64,000 bases of DNA from Parcubacteria group bacterium M10-OD1-1. Its GTDB lineage: Bacteria; Patescibacteriota; Minisyncoccia; Moranbacterales; UBA2206. A program made the translations under genes and the position numbers. Within the stretch, counting starts at the first letter, position 1. The number at the start of each line of letters is the position of its first letter. A model generated the notes under the pieces. It was not told the origin of the DNA. It saw only the letters and a list, made by a program, of their open reading frames with translations, and searched no databases. Positions 381 through 45,796 of this stretch are shown here, one piece after another. The stretch covers positions 73,351-137,350 of the forward strand of contig LSNL01000001.1 of NCBI GenBank assembly GCA_003056145.1. Direction: 5' to 3'.

Positions 381-1655
381 ATGTTGTTTAGATTTTTATT
401 ATTATTGGCGGTCTATTTGCCATTTCAAATTGCTCTAAACCCTATCAAAGGAATTGATATGGCTTCTTTAAGGGTCTTGATTTTGATTTTGTTTTTTTGC
501 TGGTTAGCTGAAGGATTGCGGAGAAAAAAAATTCAATTAAAAAAAGAAAAAATAACTTTTTTAATTATAATTTTTCTTTTCCTGAGCTTTTTTTCAATTT
601 TTTTTGCTAATAATTTTGATTGGTCAGGACGAAAAATTTTATATCTTTTTTCTATATTTCCTATTTATTTTGTTATGCAGGATGTTATTGTTAGTAAAAA
701 GCAAATGCAAAGAATTATTCAAAAGTTAGTCTTGGCGGGTAGTTTAATCTCTGTTTTAGGCATCTTTCAAGTGATTTGGCAATTCTTTATTCCAATTAAA
801 CAAGAATTTTATTTTTGGTCACATTATGTAACACCAATATTTTTAGGAAAAAACTTAGGATTAGCTGTTATGACTTATCCTAGTTGGCTAGTTAATATAG
901 CTGGAAAAACTTATTTTCGGGCGGTAGCTATTTTCCCTGATCCGCATATGTTTTCTTTCTTTTTAGGATTATTATTGCCGTTGGCTATAGCAGTTTGGCG
1001 AAAAGAAAAAAATAATAAGTGGTTATTAGCGTTTCTAAGTATTTTTTTGGCGGATATTTTAACTTTTTCACGAGGAGGTTATTTTGGTCTTTTAGCCGGT
1101 TTTTTGTTTTTTATAATTATTTTATTAAATAATAAAAAGAAAAAATATAAATTTTTAATAGTAGCTACTTTAATTTTAGCTTTTGGTTTAATAATTCCTA
1201 ATCCTATTACTACCCGTTTTTTATCTAGTTTTAATTTACAAGAAGGTTCCAACGCTGGACGAATAAAAATGTGGCAAGATGCTATTAAAATAATAAAAGA
1301 GAAGCCTTTCTATGGCGCAGGAATTGGTAATTTTCCTTTAACAGTAAATTCTTTAGCTACTTATCGGGAGCCTATTTATGCACACAATACTTATTTAGAT
1401 ATTTCGGTTGATTCAGGTATTTTAGCTGGTTTAGCTTGGTTATCAATTTTATTTTTAGCTTGGCTAAAATTTTTCCAAAAAAGAAAAGAAGATATTATTT
1501 ATTTAGGCTTAGCGGTTAGTATAGTTATTTTTTCAGTACATTCTTTTTTTGACACAGCTATTTATTCACCAGTTGTTCTAACTTTACTTTTAATGATTTT
1601 GAGTTTTAGCCTAATTAAGGTTAGAATTAAAAAAGAAGAAAATAGTTTAAAGTAA
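381..1655 (+). CDS. O-antigen ligase / Wzy_C family polytopic membrane protein
   Basis: 424 aa with >10 predicted TM helices. Contains SRGGYFGLLAGFLFF and AHNTYLDISVDSGILAGLAWL, the H..N / G..G signature of O-antigen ligase-like proteins. Confidence 0.55.
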   Translation: MLFRFLLLLAVYLPFQIALNPIKGIDMASLRVLILILFFCWLAEGLRRKKIQLKKEKITFLIIIFLFLSFFSIFFANNFDWSGRKILYLFSIFPIYFVMQDVIVSKKQMQRIIQKLVLAGSLISVLGIFQVIWQFFIPIKQEFYFWSHYVTPIFLGKNLGLAVMTYPSWLVNIAGKTYFRAVAIFPDPHMFSFFLGLLLPLAIAVWRKEKNNKWLLAFLSIFLADILTFSRGGYFGLLAGFLFFIIILLNNKKKKYKFLIVATLILAFGLIIPNPITTRFLSSFNLQEGSNAGRIKMWQDAIKIIKEKPFYGAGIGNFPLTVNSLATYREPIYAHNTYLDISVDSGILAGLAWLSILFLAWLKFFQKRKEDIIYLGLAVSIVIFSVHSFFDTAIYSPVVLTLLLMILSFSLIKVRIKKEENSLK

Positions 1656-3554: not shown

Positions 3555-3634
3555 AGCATTCTCAATATTTGTATATTTTAACTATAGTATAAAACAAAAA
3601 CAGCTCAGAAGGAAGCCGTTTTTAAAATTAACTG

Positions 3635-3706
3635 AGCGAGTAACGGGAATCGAACCCGTCTTTCTTCCTTGGCAAGGAGGTGTAATAGCCACTATACGAT
3701 ACTCGC
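3635..3706 (-). tRNA. tRNA-Gly (GCC)
   Basis: Reverse complement folds as a cloverleaf: acceptor GCGAGTA/TACTCGC, anticodon loop TTGCCAA (anticodon GCC), T-arm CGGGTTCGATTCCCG, discriminator U. Confidence 0.7.
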
Positions 3707-3757
3707 TGTTATTTAGTTTTTACAGACTAATCAAGAGAAAATTGAAAAAATAATAAT

Positions 3758-3832
<75 letters not shown>

Positions 3833-3856
3833 GTTTAAGTTGGGAGAGGAGAATGT

Positions 3857-3929
3857 GGATCCTATAGGACTCGAACCTATAACCTCCTCGGTGTAAACGA
3901 GATGCTCTAGCCAATTGAGCTAAGGATCC
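3857..3929 (-). tRNA. tRNA-Val (TAC)
   Basis: Reverse complement GGATCCTTAGCTCAATTGGCTAGAGC...TCTCGTTTACACCGAGG... has anticodon loop TTTACAC (TAC), T-arm GGTTCGAGTCC and acceptor GGATCCT/AGGATCC. Confidence 0.75.
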
Positions 3930-4013
3930 ATTGGTAGGCTTTTACAACTTATATTTTAACTAATAAATTAAAACCAATATTATGAAAACAAACGATACTC
4001 CTAGTTCTCTAAG

Positions 4014-4096
4014 TGCCTTCGGCGGGACTCGAACCCACATGGACAGAAGTCCCATGCACCTCAAGCATGTGTGTATACCAATTCCACCACGAAGGC
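4014..4096 (-). tRNA. tRNA-Leu (GAG), long variable arm
   Basis: 83 nt. Reverse complement GCCTTCGTGGTGGAATTGGTATACAC... has anticodon stem-loop CATGC-TTGAGGT-GCATG (GAG), variable arm GGACTTCTGTCC and T-arm GTGGGTTCGAGTCCCGC. Confidence 0.7.
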
Positions 4097-5741: not shown

Positions 5742-5758
5742 AAAGTTAAATTAAAAAG

Positions 5759-5841
5759 TGCCTTGGGCGAGACTCGAACTCGCACGGGACAAGCCCACTA
5801 GTTCCTAAGACTAGCGTGTATACCAATTCCACCACCAAGGC
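5759..5841 (-). tRNA. tRNA-Leu (TAG), long variable arm
   Basis: Reverse complement GCCTTGGTGGTGGAATTGGTATACACGCTAGTCTTAGGAACTAGTGGGCTTGTCCCGTGCGAGTTCGAGTCTCGCCCAAGGCA. Anticodon stem-loop CTAGT-CTTAGGA-ACTAG gives anticodon TAG. Confidence 0.7.
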
Positions 5842-8879: not shown

Positions 8880-8954
8880 TGGTGCTCTCGCCAAGAGTCG
8901 AACTTGGATCTAAGGCTTAGGAGTCCCTTGTTCTATCCGTTGAACTACGAGAGC
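8880..8954 (-). tRNA. tRNA-Arg (CCT), encoded CCA
   Basis: Reverse complement GCTCTCGTAGTTCAACGGATAGAAC-AGGGA-CTCCTAA-GCCTT...CCAAGTTCGACTCTTGG-CGAGAGC-ACCA. Anticodon CCT. Confidence 0.7.
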
Positions 8955-9494: not shown

Positions 9495-9678
9495 AAAAAA
9501 ACAACTAACAAATCGGAACATGCCTCGGTGCACCTTCGCATTGTTTTGTCTGCGAACGAAGTTTGCCTTGGTAAGGATATTGTAATCCGAGCGCGAACTT
9601 ATTTCGAGAACAATAGCTAGGAAGCGGAACGCTTCGCGTACTTTTTCTCGCGCTCTGCGAGCGTGAAGTTTTAATTTG
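9495..9678 (-). ncRNA. Candidate structured ncRNA (unidentified), GC-rich island immediately 3' of tRNA-Ala
   Basis: ~185 nt at ~50% GC in a ~28% GC background. Nested perfect hairpins: cgctc-tgc-gagcg, gaagcg-gaa-cgcttc, ttcgca-N10-tgcgaa, and the self-complementary ggtgcacc. The minus-strand sense ends in a U-run. Family and strand unresolved. Confidence 0.35.
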
Positions 9679-9751
9679 TGGACCTGAGGAGATTCGAACT
9701 CCTGACCTCTTCCATGCCATGGAAGCGCTCTACCAACTAAGCTACAGGCCC
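9679..9751 (-). tRNA. tRNA-Ala (GGC)
   Basis: Reverse complement GGGCCTGTAGCTTAGTTGGTAGAGCG-CTTCC-ATGGCAT-GGAAG-AGGTC-AGGAGTTCGAATCTCCT-CAGGTCC-A. G3:U70 Ala identity pair present. Confidence 0.8.
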
Positions 9752-25521: not shown

Positions 25522-25716
25522 AGAATTATTAGTAGCTATTTATTCGCAAAAAACTGTTTCTGAAAAAGAAACAGTTTTTGTTTTAACAACTAAAATGTTC
25601 AAGTGAAAAGTGTTAAACCTTAAAAACAATTAATGAAATAAAATTATTTAAGCTTGTTCTAATTAATTTTAAGTAAAAACTTAAAATATAATCAGTAAGC
25701 TAGTTAGAGATATTAG

Positions 25717-25788
25717 TGGGACCAGCAGGATTCGAACCTGCGACCAAGCGATTATGAGTCGCCTGCTCTACCGCTGAGCTATGGTCCC
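25717..25788 (-). tRNA. tRNA with CAT anticodon (elongator Met or lysidine-modified Ile2)
   Basis: Reverse complement GGGACCATAGCTCAGCGGTAGAGCA-GGCGA-CTCATAA-TCGCT…GCAGGTTCGAATCCTGC-TGGTCCC-A. The G1-C72 pair and lack of GGG/CCC in the anticodon stem argue against an initiator. Confidence 0.7.
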
Positions 25789-25799
25789 TTATATTCTAG

Positions 25800-25873
25800 T
25801 GGGCGTATCCCGACTCGAACGGGAGACCTCTTCCATGTCAAGGAAACGCTCTAACCAACTGAGCTATACGCCC
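25800..25873 (-). tRNA. tRNA-Val (GAC)
   Basis: Reverse complement GGGCGTATAGCTCAGTTGGTTAGAGCG-TTTCC-TTGACAT-GGAAG…CCCGTTCGAGTCGGG-ATACGCCC-A. Confidence 0.75.
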
Positions 25874-33644: not shown

Positions 33645-33715
33645 GCGGGTGTCGTATAGTGGCAGTACAGGAGTCTCCAAAACTTCTAACGGGGGTTCGA
33701 TTCCCTCCACCCGTG
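33645..33715 (+). tRNA. tRNA-Trp (CCA)
   Basis: GCGGGTGTCGTATAGTGGCAGTAC-AGGAGT-CTCCAAA-ACTTC-TAACGGGGGTTCGATTCCCTCCACCCGTG. Anticodon CCA. Confidence 0.7.
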
Positions 33716-33862
33716 CATTAAAAAATAACCAAGAAAAGAGGCTCATTTAGGGCTATTCTTTGGTTCTAGTATTTTGATAGAAGATAGGACGTTAGAACTT
33801 TTTATAGTAATATAGAAATATAAAAAATGTTTTTTATATTATATTGAGAATGAATATTTAAA

Positions 33863-40310: not shown

Positions 40311-42416
40311 ATGGAACAAAAAAAATGGTCCCTTCAAATCGGAGGGAGAATTTTAGAAATTGAAACTGGATTATTAGCTAACCAAGCTAGTGGATCAGTA
40401 ACTTGTCGTTACGGGGATACGGTTGTTTTAGCAACGGCGGTTATGAGTAAAAATGCCTCTCGGGTGAGTGGCTATTTTCCGTTAATGGTTGATTTTGAAG
40501 AACGTTACTATGCCGCTGGTAAAATCAAGGGTTCTAGATTTATTAAAAGAGAGGGTCGTCCTTCTGATACAGCTATTCTTTCTGGGCGAGCAGTTGATAG
40601 AACTATTAGACCACTTTTTAACTCTAGAATGAGAAATGATGTGCAAGTTATTTGCACGGTGCTTTCTTATGATGGAGAAAATGATCCAGATGTAATAGCA
40701 ATGATTGCGGCTTCTGTTGCATTATCTATTTCTAATATTCCTTGGGATGGTCCAATTGCAGCGGTAAGAGTAGGCAAAACAGGAGAAGAAATGATTTTAA
40801 ATCCAGTCAATGGTGAAGTAACAGATGGAGAGATAGATCTTTTAGTGGCTGGAACAAAAGATAAAATAAATATGATTGAGTGTGGAGCTAAAGAAGTGGC
40901 CGAAGGAGAAATATTTCAAGCTTTTGAATTTGCTCAAGAGGCGATTGCTAAAATTGCTATTTTTATTGAAGCTATACAAAAAGAAGTAGGCAAAGAAAAA
41001 ACTATTCCTATTTTAATTCAAGGAACACCAGAATTTGAAGAAAAAATTAAAGAAATTCTATTAGCGGAAGGATTAGCAGAGGCTTTGTATAATAAAGATA
41101 AGAATATTATTGAAGAAAAAACTAAACTTATCCAAGAAAAAGTTCAGCAATATATTGAAGAAAATTATTCAGAAGGAATAGAAAAATTAAAAGAAATTGC
41201 AGAATTAGTATCAGAAAAAGTAGCGGACAATATTGTACATAAAAACATTTTAGAAAAAGAGCAACGACCAGATGGAAGAAAATTAACTGAAATTAGAAAA
41301 ATTGATTGCCAAACTGGGATTCTTCCTAGAACTCACGGGACAGGCTTATTTACTAGAGGAGAAACACAAGCTTTAACAGTGGCTACTTTAGGTTCTCCGG
41401 GAGACGAACAAATTATTGATACTATGGAAGTGGATACTAAAAAAAGATATATTCATCATTATAATTTTCCTCCTTTTTCAGTTGGCGAAACTCGTCCAAT
41501 GAGAGGTCCAGGTAGACGGGAGATTGGACACGGAGCCTTAGCAGAAAAAGCTTTAATTCCAGTTTTACCATCTAAAGAAGAATTTCCTTATACGATGCTT
41601 TTAGTAAGTGAGGTACTTTCTTCTAATGGTTCTTCTTCAATGGCTTCTACTTGTGGTTCCACGCTTTCTTTAATGGACGCTGGTGTTCCAATTAAGCGTC
41701 CAGTGAGTGGTATTGCGATGGGAATAATTGTTAAAGATAAAAATAATTTTAAAATTTTAACTGATATTCAAGGGTTAGAAGATCATTATGGAGATATGGA
41801 CTTTAAAGCGGCTGGTACAGAAAAAGGGTTAACTGCTATTCAAATGGATGTTAAAGTAGAAGGTGTAACTTTACCTATGTTAGAAGCTGTCTTAAAACAA
41901 TCTCATGGTAATCGAATAGAAATTTTAGGTAAAATAGCAGAAGCGATTAGTGAGCCAAGAAAAGAAATGTCGCAATACGCACCAAGAATTATAACATTAC
42001 ATATCAATCCTGATAAAATTAGAAATGTTATCGGAGCGGGAGGAAAAATAATCAATGCTATTATTGACGAAACAGGAGTCCAAATTGATATTGAAGATGA
42101 TGGATCTATTTTCATTACTTCAGCCGATAAAACTTCTGCTCAAAAAGCGGTAGAATGGATTAATAATTTAACTCATGAAGTAAAAACTGGTGAAAATTTC
42201 AAAGCTAAAATTATAAAGATTATGAACTTTGGAGCTTTTGCTGAAATTTTACCAGGACAAGAAGGCCTAATTCATATTTCTGAGATTAGCGAAAAAAGAA
42301 TTGAGAAAGTAGAAGATGTTTTAAAGGTTGGAGATATAGTGCCAGTTAAAGTAAAAGAAATTGATCAACAAGGGAGAATAAGTTTATCTATGAAAGCAGT
42401 CAAAGAGGATAATTAG
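40311..42416 (+). CDS. pnp: Polynucleotide phosphorylase
   Basis: 701 aa with two RNase PH domains, KH (…IGAGGKIINAI…) and a C-terminal S1 domain (…FGAFAEILPGQEGLIHISEI…). Confidence 0.9.
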   Translation: MEQKKWSLQIGGRILEIETGLLANQASGSVTCRYGDTVVLATAVMSKNASRVSGYFPLMVDFEERYYAAGKIKGSRFIKREGRPSDTAILSGRAVDRTIRPLFNSRMRNDVQVICTVLSYDGENDPDVIAMIAASVALSISNIPWDGPIAAVRVGKTGEEMILNPVNGEVTDGEIDLLVAGTKDKINMIECGAKEVAEGEIFQAFEFAQEAIAKIAIFIEAIQKEVGKEKTIPILIQGTPEFEEKIKEILLAEGLAEALYNKDKNIIEEKTKLIQEKVQQYIEENYSEGIEKLKEIAELVSEKVADNIVHKNILEKEQRPDGRKLTEIRKIDCQTGILPRTHGTGLFTRGETQALTVATLGSPGDEQIIDTMEVDTKKRYIHHYNFPPFSVGETRPMRGPGRREIGHGALAEKALIPVLPSKEEFPYTMLLVSEVLSSNGSSSMASTCGSTLSLMDAGVPIKRPVSGIAMGIIVKDKNNFKILTDIQGLEDHYGDMDFKAAGTEKGLTAIQMDVKVEGVTLPMLEAVLKQSHGNRIEILGKIAEAISEPRKEMSQYAPRIITLHINPDKIRNVIGAGGKIINAIIDETGVQIDIEDDGSIFITSADKTSAQKAVEWINNLTHEVKTGENFKAKIIKIMNFGAFAEILPGQEGLIHISEISEKRIEKVEDVLKVGDIVPVKVKEIDQQGRISLSMKAVKEDN

Positions 42417-42468
42417 AAGACGGGTGGTCAAATTAGAATTTTTATTGTAAAATAGAAGTGCTTGATTA

Positions 42469-43542
42469 GTGCTTCTATTTTTAATTAAAATAAAAAATAA
42501 AAAAATGTTTTCAGATAATAAAACTACTTCTAATAATAATTTTAAATCCAAAAAAAAAATAAATTTAGTGCAAGATACTAAAATTCATACTATGGAAAAA
42601 GATTTATTTGAATCTAAAAATCCTACCAATACTTCTCAAACAGAATTAGAGGCAACCGTCAATAAACAAAAAAAAACAAACTTAGAATATGAAACTAATA
42701 ATTCGCAAGAAATCAGCCCTTTTCTAAAAGGAGAAGAGAAAATAATTGATAAAAATCAATTTTCAACAATTCCTGATCAACAAAATCAGCCAATGAAAAC
42801 CAAATCAGTTCTTAATAAAATTATAATTATTATAGTGATTAGTATTAGTATTATAGGTATTGGTGGAGGTAGTTTTTATTTTTGGAAAACTAGAATAAGT
42901 AATACTAAAAAGATTAAAAACGCTAATGATCAGCTTGGCAAATCTTTAGAAAATACACCAACTAATAATTTATCTGAGTTCTCAATAGATAAAGCTAATT
43001 ATTTAAGTTTGGATTTTAATAAAGATAATAAAGAGCAAATTTTAAGTATTCTTCAAAAATATGTAAAAAAGATTGCAACCTTAAAAACAATTGCTCCAGT
43101 AGAATTTATTCTAACTAACTCTCAGAATAATCCGATTTCTTTTCAAGATTTTGCTCAGAAAGTAAATTTAACATTGTCAAAAAATTTAATTGATCAATTA
43201 GGTACTAATTTTAGCTTGTTTATTTATAATGATAATGGGAATGTCAGACTTGGTTTAGCAATTGCTACTAATAATAGTCAAGAAGTGAAAAATCTTTTAT
43301 TAAAAGAAGAAGATAATCTTCCTCAAGAAATTCAATTTCTTTTCTTAGGCAAAGATACTAGCGGATTAAAAGAAGCTTCATTTAGTCTAGGAAAGTATCA
43401 AGGGTTAAATATTAGATATTATAATGTTGTTTCACCAGAAATTTTGTCAATAGATTATACTATTTATAAAAACCAATGGTTAGTTGGAACAACCAAGATG
43501 ACATTGAGGTCTATTGTTAACTATATTAGTAAGCAAGGATAG
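42469..43542 (+). CDS. Hypothetical membrane-anchored protein
   Basis: K/N-rich N-terminus, one TM (IIIIIVISISIIGIGGG), extracytoplasmic domain of unknown function. Confidence 0.35.
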   Translation: MLLFLIKIKNKKMFSDNKTTSNNNFKSKKKINLVQDTKIHTMEKDLFESKNPTNTSQTELEATVNKQKKTNLEYETNNSQEISPFLKGEEKIIDKNQFSTIPDQQNQPMKTKSVLNKIIIIIVISISIIGIGGGSFYFWKTRISNTKKIKNANDQLGKSLENTPTNNLSEFSIDKANYLSLDFNKDNKEQILSILQKYVKKIATLKTIAPVEFILTNSQNNPISFQDFAQKVNLTLSKNLIDQLGTNFSLFIYNDNGNVRLGLAIATNNSQEVKNLLLKEEDNLPQEIQFLFLGKDTSGLKEASFSLGKYQGLNIRYYNVVSPEILSIDYTIYKNQWLVGTTKMTLRSIVNYISKQG

Positions 43543-43744
43543 AGCGGATTGCAAGTAAGGAACTCAAAATATATATAATAACCTGTGGATAACTTATTAG
43601 TAGAGCTAAATTAGCCAGTCGATAAAGGATAAAAAAGTAAATTGTTTAAAACAATTGGAGAAAATTAAGGAAAAGTGACCAATTTTCTAAAAAAGTAATT
43701 AAATAGATATTACGCTTTATTTAAAGGATAATTTTAACAAGTGA

Positions 43745-43773
43745 TTGACTTTTGGTTATTTTCTTGCTATAAT
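43745..43773 (+). promoter_or_regulatory. Consensus sigma70 promoter driving a noncoding transcript
   Basis: TTGACT, 17-bp spacer, TATAAT. No ORF with an RBS for ~550 bp downstream. Confidence 0.6.
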
Positions 43774-43779
43774 AGAGTT

Positions 43780-44269
43780 AGTGAAAAGTAAAAGAACCTT
43801 AAAAATTATTGAAAATGTTACGGCAGAATAATTTTCAATCACAATTTCCCCCTATTTGTGGTTGAAAATTATTCTGCTGTCCAAGTGCTTTAGCCAACGC
43901 GCTAAAGTCGCTCCTATTCTAACTAGGAGACCCAAAATAAAAATAAAAAAACAATTCTTGCTTAAAAAGTGAGATTTGTAAAACTTTTTAAAACAAAAAT
44001 AAAAAATAAAAAGTCTGTTCTTTAAATTAAAGGTGAAAAATCACCAGAGGATGGTAGAAAATAAGACACGAAAGTTAGATAAGTGTCAAAGAGTCGTATA
44101 TAAAGTACGCGTGATTTACAACTATGTAAATGCCTTCACCCGGGCTATAATAGTTTTCGATTTACGTGTTAGTACGACAAACATCAGGGCGTTCCGCCAA
44201 TTTATTTCTATTGGGCGTCGAGCGCCCTGGTTTCAATATTATTTATAGACACCAGGCAGGTGTTTTTTT
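43780..44269 (+). ncRNA. Candidate structured ncRNA of unknown family (~480 nt, between promoter and terminator)
   Basis: Contains a 16-bp perfect inverted repeat hairpin (43823-43877), a gctttagc/gctaaag hairpin, and a GC-enriched 3' half with nested helices (cagggcg[cgccaa…ttgggcg]tcgagcgccctg). It ends at an intrinsic terminator at 44247-44269. Conserved RNase P and tmRNA motifs were not seen. Confidence 0.35.
44247..44269 (+). terminator. Intrinsic terminator
   Basis: agacacc-aggca-ggtgt followed by TTTTTTT. Confidence 0.5.
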
Positions 44270-44331
44270 GTTGCTTAATTTTTGAATAAGTTATATTTTA
44301 AATAAAAAAGAATAATTATTTATTAATCTTA

Positions 44332-44715
44332 ATGGTTACAAACAAAAGGAAGTTTGGTGATTTAGGGGAAAAAATTGCAATTAAATTCTTAAAAAATAAA
44401 AAATATAAGATCGTAGAAACTAATTTTAAAAATAAAACTGGTAGAATGTTGGGTGAAATAGATATTATTGCTCAAGATGTTCAAGCTAATGAGTTAGTTT
44501 TTGTGGAAGTTAAAACCAGAGAATATAATAAATTTAAAGATACTTTACCAGAGGAAAATATTACTTCTATGAAACTTAAAAAATTAGTCAGAGTTGCTAA
44601 TTTTTATTTACAAAATAAGAAATTAACTGCTGCTCAATATAGATTTGACGCTATTTCAGTTTGGTTAGATTTAAAGTCTAAAAAAGCTAAAGTCAAACAT
44701 ATTTGTAGCTTGTAA
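44332..44715 (+). CDS. YraN/UPF0102 family endonuclease-like protein
   Basis: FGDLGEKIAIKFLKNKKYKIVETNFK…GEIDIIAQD…LVFVEVKTR is the UPF0102 signature. Confidence 0.65.
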   Translation: MVTNKRKFGDLGEKIAIKFLKNKKYKIVETNFKNKTGRMLGEIDIIAQDVQANELVFVEVKTREYNKFKDTLPEENITSMKLKKLVRVANFYLQNKKLTAAQYRFDAISVWLDLKSKKAKVKHICSL

Positions 44716-44912
44716 GTTCTCTCAACCTAAGATCAAGAATAAAAACTAAATAGCGAAGATAGACAGGAGCCATTTTTTTTGATAAAATTGAAAGTAGGAG
44801 TAAAGAATAAAAAAGTAATAAACAAAGAGAGCGGACATAAAAAACCAAAAGCATAAATGATAAACGAAAACTAAAAATAAATAAGGATTAAATTTAATTA
44901 TTTTAAAAATAT

Positions 44913-45266
44913 ATGGCTATTGATAAACAAATTTTAGAAGAGCTAAAGAAGGCTTTATTAGAAGAAAAAGAGAAATTGGAAAAAAATATGAATAAAATTG
45001 CTAAACCAGTAGATGATAAAGAAGGCGATTATGAAACTTCTTTTGACGATATTGGAAACGATAAAGATGATAATGCTACGGAAGTTGACCAATACACTCA
45101 AAATTTATCAGTAGAGACAGCTTTAGAAAAAAGATTACAAAAAATAATAAAAGCTTTAGATAAAATAGATAAAGGGATTTATGGAGTCTGTATTAACTGC
45201 CAAAAAGAAATACCCATTGAGAGACTTAAGGCCAATCCGAGCTCACAAACTTGTAATAGATGCTAA
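44913..45266 (+). CDS. DksA/TraR-family C4 zinc-finger protein
   Basis: C-terminal CINCQKEIPIERLKANPSSQTCNRC (CxxC-x17-CxxC) after a coiled-coil N-terminus. Confidence 0.6.
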   Translation: MAIDKQILEELKKALLEEKEKLEKNMNKIAKPVDDKEGDYETSFDDIGNDKDDNATEVDQYTQNLSVETALEKRLQKIIKALDKIDKGIYGVCINCQKEIPIERLKANPSSQTCNRC

Positions 45267-45379
45267 TCTTGAATAATTAAAGAGTGAATATTTGAAGCTA
45301 CTTGATTTAAAATATAGGTAGTTATTTCTAAATAAAATAAAAACTTTAATTAAAGTTAATCTATCAGAATTGTTTCCAA

Positions 45380-45796
45380 ATGAATTATAAAAAAAACATT
45401 CTTATTTTTTTAATTTTAATTTTTTTAGATCAAATAAGTAAGCATCTTATCCGCTCTAACGGCGGATTTTATATTTGTAACTTTAATAGTGCTTTTGGAA
45501 TTTCTTTACCAACTTTTTTATTTTGGTTTCTTTGGATTGGAATGCTGATAATTTTTATTTGGGCAATTTATAAAAATTTTTTTTTAGTATCAACTTTTTA
45601 TTTAATTCTTATCTTAGCGGGGGCTATTTCTAACTTAATAGACCGTTTAGCTAGAGGTTGTGTAATTGATTTTATTGATTTAAAGTTTTGGCCAGTTTTT
45701 AATTTAGCAGATTTATTTATTTTTTTTGGTGCTATAATGATAATAGCAAGCTATCTTAAAAAAGAAAAAAAACCTTTTAATTTTTTCAAAAAATAA
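45380..45796 (+). CDS. lspA: Lipoprotein signal peptidase II
   Basis: NSAFGISLP (N-x-G-x-AFG) and NLIDRLARGCVIDFIDLKFWPVFNLADLFI conserved boxes. Four TM segments. Confidence 0.75.
   Translation: MNYKKNILIFLILIFLDQISKHLIRSNGGFYICNFNSAFGISLPTFLFWFLWIGMLIIFIWAIYKNFFLVSTFYLILILAGAISNLIDRLARGCVIDFIDLKFWPVFNLADLFIFFGAIMIIASYLKKEKKPFNFFKK

Follow-up and report, generated by a model that had tools for sequence, protein, structure and literature searches.

The stretch of DNA considered here (the window, 64 kb or 64,000 nucleotides (nt) of contig LSNL01000001.1 of Parcubacteria group bacterium M10-OD1-1) carries on its + strand, at 43745-44271, an element that runs from a promoter through a terminator and corresponds to an RNA of ~490 nt. 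It lies in an intergenic stretch of 789 base pairs (bp; 43543-44331) between an open reading frame (ORF) of 345 amino acids (aa; 42505-43542) and yraN/UPF0102 (44332-44715), and the genes around it come in the order pnp, a gene for a single-pass membrane protein without a Pfam family, the RNA element, yraN, a dksA/traR-type zinc-finger protein, lspA and a comM/Mg-chelatase-like ATPase. No gene is called at the element in the NCBI, JGI or Logan annotations, and an identical neighbour protein is encoded in NCBI assembly GCA_003056095.1 (contig LSNQ01000012.1), where the intergenic region has no called gene either. The polynucleotide phosphorylase of the window (40311-42416) is at most 81% identical to proteins from metagenome-assembled genomes (MAGs) of Candidatus Moranbacteria/Moraniibacteriota. 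The original prediction for this locus had proposed a promoter-to-terminator unit for a structured non-coding RNA (ncRNA) of no recognised family, and this description stands: homology is bounded by the promoter and the terminator, the helices covary, and no known family matches.

Conservation and classification

When the intergenic region was used as a query in nhmmer, a syntenic homologue was found in the 11 closest genome loci, with matches that begin at the promoter and end at the terminator, and a scan of metagenomes with a pattern of the 5′ domain gave at least 120 contigs, essentially all of which carry true homologues (one metagenome contig, L119, comes from the same organism as the window). 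The nhmmer E-values in L001-L011 and L081-L200 range from 1e-130 to 1e-15. Removal of sequences more than 93% identical left 59 full-length representatives of 425-600 nt and 30-49% GC, which were aligned with MAFFT (alignment A6, with 101 pairs); the 5′ domain (A4, 54 sequences) and the 3′ domain (A5, 45 sequences) were also aligned on their own. In more than 120 loci the whole unit is kept, promoter and terminator included, while identity in the neighbouring membrane protein falls to 20-35%. Searched with a covariance model of the 5′ domain, the window yields a single copy and the pnp loci of other classes of the candidate phyla radiation (CPR) or of other phyla yield none, and in L012, the next most distant Moranbacteria locus, the equivalent place is coding. 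The 5′-domain pattern has 0 matches in 2.9 million viral contigs, and an association with phages was rejected on that basis.

The unit begins with a sigma-70 promoter (43745-43773) composed of TTGACT, a 17-nt spacer and the extended -10 box TGcTATAAT, which scores 11/12 with the TG present and is the top sigma-70 site in a 3-kb scan (42400-45400); transcription would start near 43780. This promoter had been called a textbook one. All distinct homologous 5′ ends (102/102) carry TTGAC, a spacer of exactly 17 nt and TGn plus TAYAMT, and in the homologue alignment neither the TTGAC of the -35 box nor most positions of the -10 box vary. At the other end, a single-stranded tail leads into an intrinsic terminator (44230-44271; stem 44249-53 with 44259-63, then U7), the hairpin of which spans 44247-44265 and is followed by T7, in agreement with the hairpin plus U7 first proposed. 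By a strict criterion (a fold of ≤ -6 kcal/mol plus T5), such a hairpin with a T-run is present in 42/59 homologues, and most of the others have a T-run with a weaker stem upstream. The form of the terminator found here, CACC-N-GGTGTTTTT (44250-44267), is unique within the 64 kb of the window and is seen again in many AT-rich homologues; GC-rich and diverged members have other terminator sequences than CACC/GGUG. A conserved UCACCC hairpin loop further upstream (44135-44141) is complementary to GG(G)UG, the 3′ strand of this terminator, and an antiterminator-like pairing between the two is conceivable. Past the terminator and before yraN, a second -10 box of the TGnTATAAT type is found in 37/59 representatives within the 45 nt kept (A6 columns ~1130-1200); in the window (44272-44331) the match is weak (TTATATT). 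The extra box in most homologues suggests that we are dealing with back-to-back independent transcription units.

On the + strand, 43780-44272 folds with a minimum free energy (MFE) of -146.7 kcal/mol, as compared to -92.4 ± 6.0 for shuffled sequences (z = -9.0), whereas the - strand reaches z = -4.8. A minus-strand RNA was discarded, since it folds worse and since many G-U pairs work on the + strand only. Such pairs are frequent (for instance GU:52 at A6 columns 159/216) and would be C-A mismatches on the - strand, which identifies the + strand as the transcribed one. The GC content is 0.37-0.42 in 44050-44250 and 0.19-0.29 in the flanks, in line with the GC-enriched 3′ domain of the original prediction. 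With respect to coding capacity, the ORF that had been described as the only one (44033-44248, 71 aa, GTG start) does exist and is the sole one of at least 60 aa in the unit, but two further ORFs of 38 and 39 aa accompany it. No Shine-Dalgarno-like sequence could be read at the 71-aa ORF. That none of these ORFs is credible is borne out by the 59 homologues, in which the longest ORF varies from 25 to 157 aa (median 55 aa) and has no conserved position; some homologues hold an ATG ORF of 3 aa only.

To classify the RNA, the 4227 models of Rfam 15 were run with cmscan, and a search at E ≤ 10 was made on 43500-44400. At the gathering score, the window has only transfer RNAs (tRNAs), which lie elsewhere, and nothing on the element; at E ≤ 10, the element is matched only by models of microRNA precursors, which match any long hairpin. 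Fifteen diverged homologous loci have no Rfam match at the gathering score, and three further loci (L008, L010 and L150, GC-rich ones included) have none over the element at E ≤ 0.05. RNase P RNA (RF00010/RF00011) accordingly was not found at the gathering score, at E ≤ 10, or at E ≤ 0.05 on the homologues, and while an ACCCGG segment is present, reading by eye reveals no upstream CCGGG partner for a P4 helix. ARAGORN reports 10 tRNAs in the window and no transfer-messenger RNA (tmRNA), with neither a tRNA-like domain nor a tag ORF at the element; Rfam (RF00023 and the permuted forms) gives no match, and the 3′ end is an intrinsic terminator. Both the missing P4 motif and the missing tRNA-like domain had been noted before, and both observations hold. 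6S RNA and the RNA of the bacterial signal recognition particle (SRP) have no match at E ≤ 10, and the long helix of the element, H1, is continuous over 25 bp and lacks the central bubble of the irregular 6S hairpin. OLE, ROOL, GOLLD, raiA, HEARO and the other large ncRNA families in Rfam 15 match neither the window element nor its homologues, and in the literature on CPR, Moranbacteria, Patescibacteria and structured RNA we found no account of it. The Infernal search of Rfam, proposed at the outset as a check on a family assignment that had been left open, thus ends with no described family that matches. As far as these resources show, the family represents a new class of large ornate RNA in bacteria, is absent from Rfam 15 and is restricted to one clade within the Moranbacteria.

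Architecture of the RNA

The structural model comprises 101 pairs in 23 helix segments (~15 designed helices), and about a dozen helices are supported by covariation. In A4, 94.7% of the cells are paired (76.8% after shuffling, 35-47% in slid registers), in A5 93.8% (81.9% and 22-42%, respectively), and in A6, where MAFFT misaligns hairpins of variable length, 82.0% (72.0% and 37-45%); in none of the three alignments does any shuffle (0/500) reach the covariation score. Double-sided changes occur at 22/28 pairs of A4, 20/23 of A5 and 79/101 of A6. The extensive secondary structure that had been assumed from the sequence is seen in the folding energy of the window RNA (z = -9.0) and in the covariation among its homologues.

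The 5′ leader (43780-43819, all coordinates here referring to the + strand) is variable in A4 and A6 save for a conserved single-stranded UURAMAAY (~43799-43806). It is followed by H1 (43820-43880), a hairpin of 25 bp in which 43820-44 pair with 43856-80 around an 11-nt loop, UUUCCCCCUAU (43845-55). A perfect inverted repeat of 16 bp (43823-43877) had been recognised at this place, and 43823-43838 and 43862-43877 are indeed perfectly complementary; this understates the helix, which with G-U pairs extends over 25 consecutive pairs. On A6, H1 is 91.9% paired, with double-sided changes at 16/25 pairs. Its apical stem is near-invariant, the apical third being conserved in sequence beyond what pairing would require, and many homologues have a bulge or mismatches in the middle of the helix (A6 columns 166-172). 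Two smaller hairpins come next, H2 (43887-43908; 43887-94 with 43901-08), which is 92.5% paired with compensatory changes at 8/8 pairs and also yields mutual-information pairs, and H3 (43911-43929; 43911-15 with 43925-29), with 4/4 compensatory pairs and the loop UCUAAC (43918-23). The two domains are then connected by a sequence-invariant and predicted single-stranded A-rich linker 1, AAAAYAAAAAYAAA (43934-43950; A6 columns A156-A169), and by the segment 43951-44013, which consists of a variable insert (0 to a hairpin of ~130 nt in homologues) and A-rich linker 2 (~43996-44013).

The 3′ domain opens with the Py helix (44017-44052), in which GUUCUUU (44017-23) pairs with AGAGGAU (44046-52; AGAGRAY in the family). 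Py encloses the small hairpin Ps (44032-36 with 44041-45), where a CG/UA pair shows 15 double changes, and is followed by the hairpin Hx (44065-44087; 44065-69 with 44083-87) with the loop GUUAGA (44074-79). The 3′ core (44093-44178) is built from two stacked, long-range stems, P_AD (44093-99 with 44172-78) and P_BC (44107-13 with 44163-69), with a conserved YAAAA internal loop between them, and these two helices enclose Pz (44122-25 with 44150-53) as well as a small hairpin (44132-34 with 44143-45) whose loop UUCACCC (44135-41; YUCACCC in the family) is conserved. In A5, helices 2 and 3 of this core are paired to 92-96%, 13/14 pairs are compensatory, and mutual information recovers pairs here too. 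A nested hairpin (44185-44229; outer stem 44185-91 with 44223-29, inner stem 44196-201 with 44210-16, AU-rich variable apical loop) completes the domain; as helix 4 of A5, it has compensatory changes at 6/6 pairs.

Two candidate pairings were not retained. A helix between GGUGA (after CCAGAG) and UCACC was dropped, as the partner does not covary, and the helix between leader and tail that closes the MFE structure of the window is not conserved in homologues and is treated as an AT-rich chance pairing. Outside of the modelled helices, one isolated pair covaries, 43885/43932 (G-C in 68 sequences, A-A in 11); it connects the H1/H2 junction to the GACCC segment after H3, and its pattern of exchange suggests that it may be a further tertiary or non-canonical contact.

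The loops of H3 (UCUAAC, 43918-23) and Hx (GUUAGA, 44074-79) are ~155 nt apart and exactly complementary over 6 bp. Across homologues, the two loops change together, as seen in the variants UCUGAC/GUCAGA, UCUAAC/GUUAGA, CCUAAC/GUUAGG, UCUGAG/CUCAGA, UCUUAG/CUAAGA and UCUGGU/ACCAGA. The mean perfect complementarity of matched partners is 6.67 nt, as compared to 5.27 nt for permuted ones (maximum 5.81 in 200 permutations), and when the motifs were located independently inside predicted loops, 30/33 were perfectly complementary (5 variant pairs) and 2 more were G-U compatible. On A6, the contact is 97.7% paired, with double changes at 5/5 counted pairs, and it is also recovered by mutual information. 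The aligned sequences thus show a predicted long-range kissing loop that joins the 5′ domain, via H3, to the 3′ domain, via Hx.

A further link found by mutual information, between 43881, immediately outside H1, and 44050, led to a second long-range pairing, which we term ALT. Segment a2, GGAUGGUAGAA (44049-44059), nearly repeats the 5′ strand of lower H1, and it pairs with 43872-43882, ~170 nt upstream, a segment made up of the 3′ strand of lower H1 and two additional bases. The original prediction, made from the sequence alone, could see neither ALT nor the kissing loop. On A6, ALT is 93.8% paired, with double-sided changes at 6/11 pairs; the pair 43881-44050 is UA in 44 sequences, CG in 14 and UG in 1, and is unpaired in 0. 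ALT and lower H1 exclude each other, and so do ALT and Py, since ALT overlaps the 3′ strand of the GUUCUUU/AGAGRAY helix. Lower H1 covaries as well as ALT does, and from the fact that both covary, we infer that selection maintains two pairings that are incompatible with each other. That this pair of helices reflects a functional switch or exchange is a tentative proposal, and one to which we would give roughly one chance in three.

Genomic context

A diverged subtype of the RNA was found in 9 loci (L011, L088, L107, L117, L148, L150, L154, L166 and L184). It keeps the promoter, the apex and loop of H1 in nearly identical form, the A-rich linkers, the UCACCC hairpin loop and the nested 3′ hairpin; its kissing pair is UCUGG/CCAGA, and its ALT helix has 10-14 bp and is present in 9/9 sequences. 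The GUUCUUU strand of the subtype is located in the 5′ leader, so that a Py-type helix would enclose the whole 5′ domain. In the core group, the leader motif G-N-N-C-A-UURAMAAY (~43795-43806) resembles a decayed copy of the subtype leader strand GUUCUUUCAAAA, and an intact GUUCUUUCAA stands at the start of the 3′ domain. The presence of both copies suggests that the helix strand was relocated during evolution.

The subtype also differs in its surroundings, as a convergent ileS lies downstream of the RNA instead of yraN, and pnp can be absent. This context rules out a simple leader function. The upstream gene of the subtype always is a distant homologue (20-25% identity) of the membrane protein, and since this protein precedes the RNA in both groups, membrane protein followed by RNA is the sole constant adjacency. 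The protein family (memb357; alignment A7; window 42505-43542) is lineage-specific and single-pass, has no Pfam family, and counts 23 close relatives, all of which are annotated as hypothetical. In the list of ORFs, the gene starts at a GTG (42469), and homologues indicate an ATG at 42505. The N-terminus of the protein, which is disordered and lies in the cytoplasm, bears two conserved motifs, PIHTMxKDLE and SPFL; one transmembrane helix follows, and then a predicted extracytoplasmic alpha/beta C-terminal domain with a predicted local distance difference test score (pLDDT) >90, for which no significant match exists in the PDB (the best is DcrB, E = 0.04). The protein shows no sign of RNA binding, and an RNA-protein partnership is no more than a possibility suggested by synteny.

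As to the remainder of the window, it holds ten tRNA genes, 9/10 of them on the - strand, at 3634-4096 (a cluster of four, Gly, Phe, Val and Leu), 5758-5841, 8880-8954, 9678-9751, 25716-25873 and 33645-33716, and no ribosomal RNA, RNase P RNA, tmRNA, SRP RNA or 6S RNA in its 64 kb. On the diverged Moranbacteria-like contig L150, a sub-threshold match to a T-box leader was seen at 450-583 (+) (44.1 bits as compared to a gathering score of 93, E = 9e-7), which is unrelated to the RNA. Several MAGs with Moranbacteria-like pnp and flanks (L003, L005, L009 and L011) are labelled 'uncultured Bdellovibrionales bacterium', and L008 is labelled 'Candidatus Fimivivens sp.'; these labels on Moranbacteria-like MAGs probably are taxonomic mislabels.

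Discussion

Judging from comparative sequence evidence, 43745-44271 (+) is likely to be an independent gene for a ~490-nt ncRNA of an undescribed ornate family in Candidatus Moranbacteria (Patescibacteria/CPR), and that we are looking at a genuine new family of structured RNAs can be stated with high confidence. The RNA fits the descriptive class of large ornate bacterial ncRNAs, having ~490 nt, double-sided changes at 79/101 pairs, a kissing loop and no conserved ORF. The perfectly conserved promoter, together with a sequence that evolves far slower than its protein neighbours, indicates that the RNA likely does something important. CPR/Patescibacteria genomes measure ~1 Mb or less and contain little non-essential sequence, and in so small a genome, of organisms that are uncultured and probably episymbiotic, an RNA gene of ~500 nt stands out.

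Our best guess for its mode of action, as suggested by the conserved pairings, is a two-state or oligomerising scaffold. The RNA would act in trans in a compactly folded form, with full H1 and the local Py helix in state one, and upper H1 and the long-range ALT helix in state two. Exchange between the two might take place within one molecule, once H1 with its 25 bp has been cut by an RNase III-type enzyme, or from molecule to molecule in the form of a domain-swapped oligomer, and the invariant single-stranded elements (the C-rich loop and the A-rich linkers) would be the places where a partner makes contact or where RNA packs against RNA. In its fullest form, this proposal sees the RNA as a two-state or self-assembling machine: the H3-Hx contact and ALT would be exchangeable and possibly intermolecular, giving rise to a domain-swapped dimer or oligomer or to a closed/open toggle, with the A-rich linkers engaged in A-minor or A-A packing and the C-rich H1 loop acting as a docking site. 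We consider this full version possible, though with roughly one chance in three it remains a speculative proposal.

Several points limit the reading as a whole, the ncRNA gene as well as its mode of action. Covariation is blind to whether a pairing is intra- or intermolecular, and equally to whether it reflects a functional switch or a folding intermediate. Py is 96.4% paired on A6, and its changes are one-sided only. The stems of H3 and Hx score 52% and 42%, respectively, in the full-length MAFFT alignment; these poor values look like misalignment, because the H3 stem reaches 86% in the domain alignment. Sites complementary to the C-rich H1 loop are not enriched in the window (7 found, 8.7 expected), and antisense targets of this loop within the window were set aside for want of a signal. 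The cytoplasmic part of the membrane protein is short and disordered, and the protein contains no RNA-binding fold. Finally, the ends of the transcript are placed by consensus signals only.

A related explanation, which we regard as unlikely while rating it above the other alternatives, is that the RNA is a precursor that is cut by RNase III in H1, such that the apical hairpin is freed as a small RNA and the 3′ strand of H1 goes on to form ALT; this would yield two products and not a reversible switch. H1 is an uninterrupted duplex of ~25 bp, which is the classical length of an RNase III substrate, ALT needs the 3′ strand of H1 to be freed while both helices covary, and the conservation of the apical third of H1 in sequence would suit a released small RNA. 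However, the bulge or mismatches that many homologues have in mid-H1 could act as antideterminants, and the leader upstream of H1 also holds a conserved motif.

It is improbable, more so than cleavage, that the RNA is a cis-acting leader, i.e., a large riboswitch or attenuator that governs read-through into the yraN-dksA-like-lspA-comM operon with H1/ALT as the sensing switch. In ~100 loci, yraN does follow the RNA immediately and in the same orientation, the RNA contains mutually exclusive helices, and the terminator of the AT-rich subgroup shares CACC/GGUG with the UCACCC loop, which could permit antiterminator pairing. Yet there is no consistent downstream gene, given that the RNA of the subtype precedes a convergent ileS and keeps its architecture with no gene to regulate, and a separate TGnTATAAT box for yraN lies past the terminator in most core loci. 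Moreover, the alternative helices leave the terminator out, and ~490 nt with a dozen helices far exceed known leaders.

Less probable still is a highly diverged housekeeping RNA (RNase P RNA, tmRNA, SRP RNA or 6S RNA) that standard models have missed. CPR genomes are known for unusual RNAs, none of the four is present in the window, and a strong constitutive promoter, a single copy, very high conservation and a suitable size would all befit such an RNA. Against this, there is no Rfam match (for the element at E ≤ 10, for GC-rich and diverged members at E ≤ 0.05, and for 15 loci at the gathering score), no tRNA-like domain or tag ORF, and no P4-type partner; no acceptor or P1 stem is formed between the 5′ and 3′ ends, and none of those families has anything like the long A-rich linkers and the 25-bp hairpin. 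The reading as a small-protein mRNA that carries a long, structured leader can be dismissed almost entirely, since an ORF such as the 71-aa GTG ORF at 44033-44248 exists but is not conserved in position or length (25-157 aa), lacks a Shine-Dalgarno-like sequence, is called as a gene by neither NCBI, JGI nor Logan, and lies in a unit with compensatory substitutions in its helices and indels of any length throughout.

Large complex RNAs are few in bacteria (those of the ribosome, RNase P, tmRNA, group I/II introns, OLE, ROOL, GOLLD, raiA and HEARO), and each of them has revealed new biochemistry or RNA architecture. Were the RNA described here a two-state or self-assembling one, Patescibacteria would gain their first known example of this kind. 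With at least 59 diverse sequences (30-49% GC), a kissing loop and the rare case of mutually exclusive helices that both covary, the family is usable for cryo-electron microscopy, chemical probing and benchmarks of structure prediction, and the RNA can serve as a marker gene for the clade in metagenomes.

Among known systems, riboswitch and attenuator platforms share with the RNA mutually exclusive helices that use one strand in common (lower H1 and ALT, Py and ALT) and show compensatory changes; they differ in that the exchange described here spares the terminator and the ribosome-binding site, and in that the RNA is not consistently located upstream of a gene. The raiA motif RNA is a stand-alone structured ncRNA with its own promoter and terminator, a multi-helix fold and tertiary contacts (PMC10861870, PMC12968392). 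The window RNA resembles it in being stand-alone and looking abundant, and in having its own promoter and terminator, a conserved multi-helix fold and tertiary contacts, whereas raiA has ~200-250 nt and belongs to Firmicutes/Actinobacteria; the window RNA is twice as large, with two domains joined via A-rich linkers, and does not match the raiA model.

OLE RNA (ornate large extremophilic RNA, RF01071, Firmicutes) is closer in several respects, both RNAs being large (~500-600 nt), intricate, lineage-restricted and encoded as a single chromosomal copy, with conserved A-rich elements. OLE RNA is encoded beside the gene of the membrane protein OapA (PMC12286853). In the same manner as OLE adjoins the OapA gene, the window RNA adjoins a gene of the memb357 family, and a partnership like that of OLE and OapA is a possibility to be drawn from this analogy. 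On the other hand, the two RNAs have no match in sequence or structure and belong to different phyla, the window RNA has its own promoter and terminator, and the protein encoded next to it spans the membrane once, has an extracytoplasmic domain and does not resemble OapA.

Homo-oligomeric assembly has been shown for OLE, ROOL and GOLLD, of which ROOL and GOLLD are commonly associated with phages or prophages. From these two the window RNA family differs by its 0 matches in 2.9 million viral contigs, its fixed chromosomal position and the lack of a model match. What they have in common is that they are large ornate RNAs with kissing loops that were found by covariation and with conserved A-rich contacts. 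The kissing loops of ROOL and GOLLD were at first taken for tertiary contacts and turned out to bridge separate molecules in homo-oligomeric cages, and their A-rich elements form A-minor and A-A contacts (PMC12286853). By analogy, the H3-Hx pair and ALT may be intermolecular as well.

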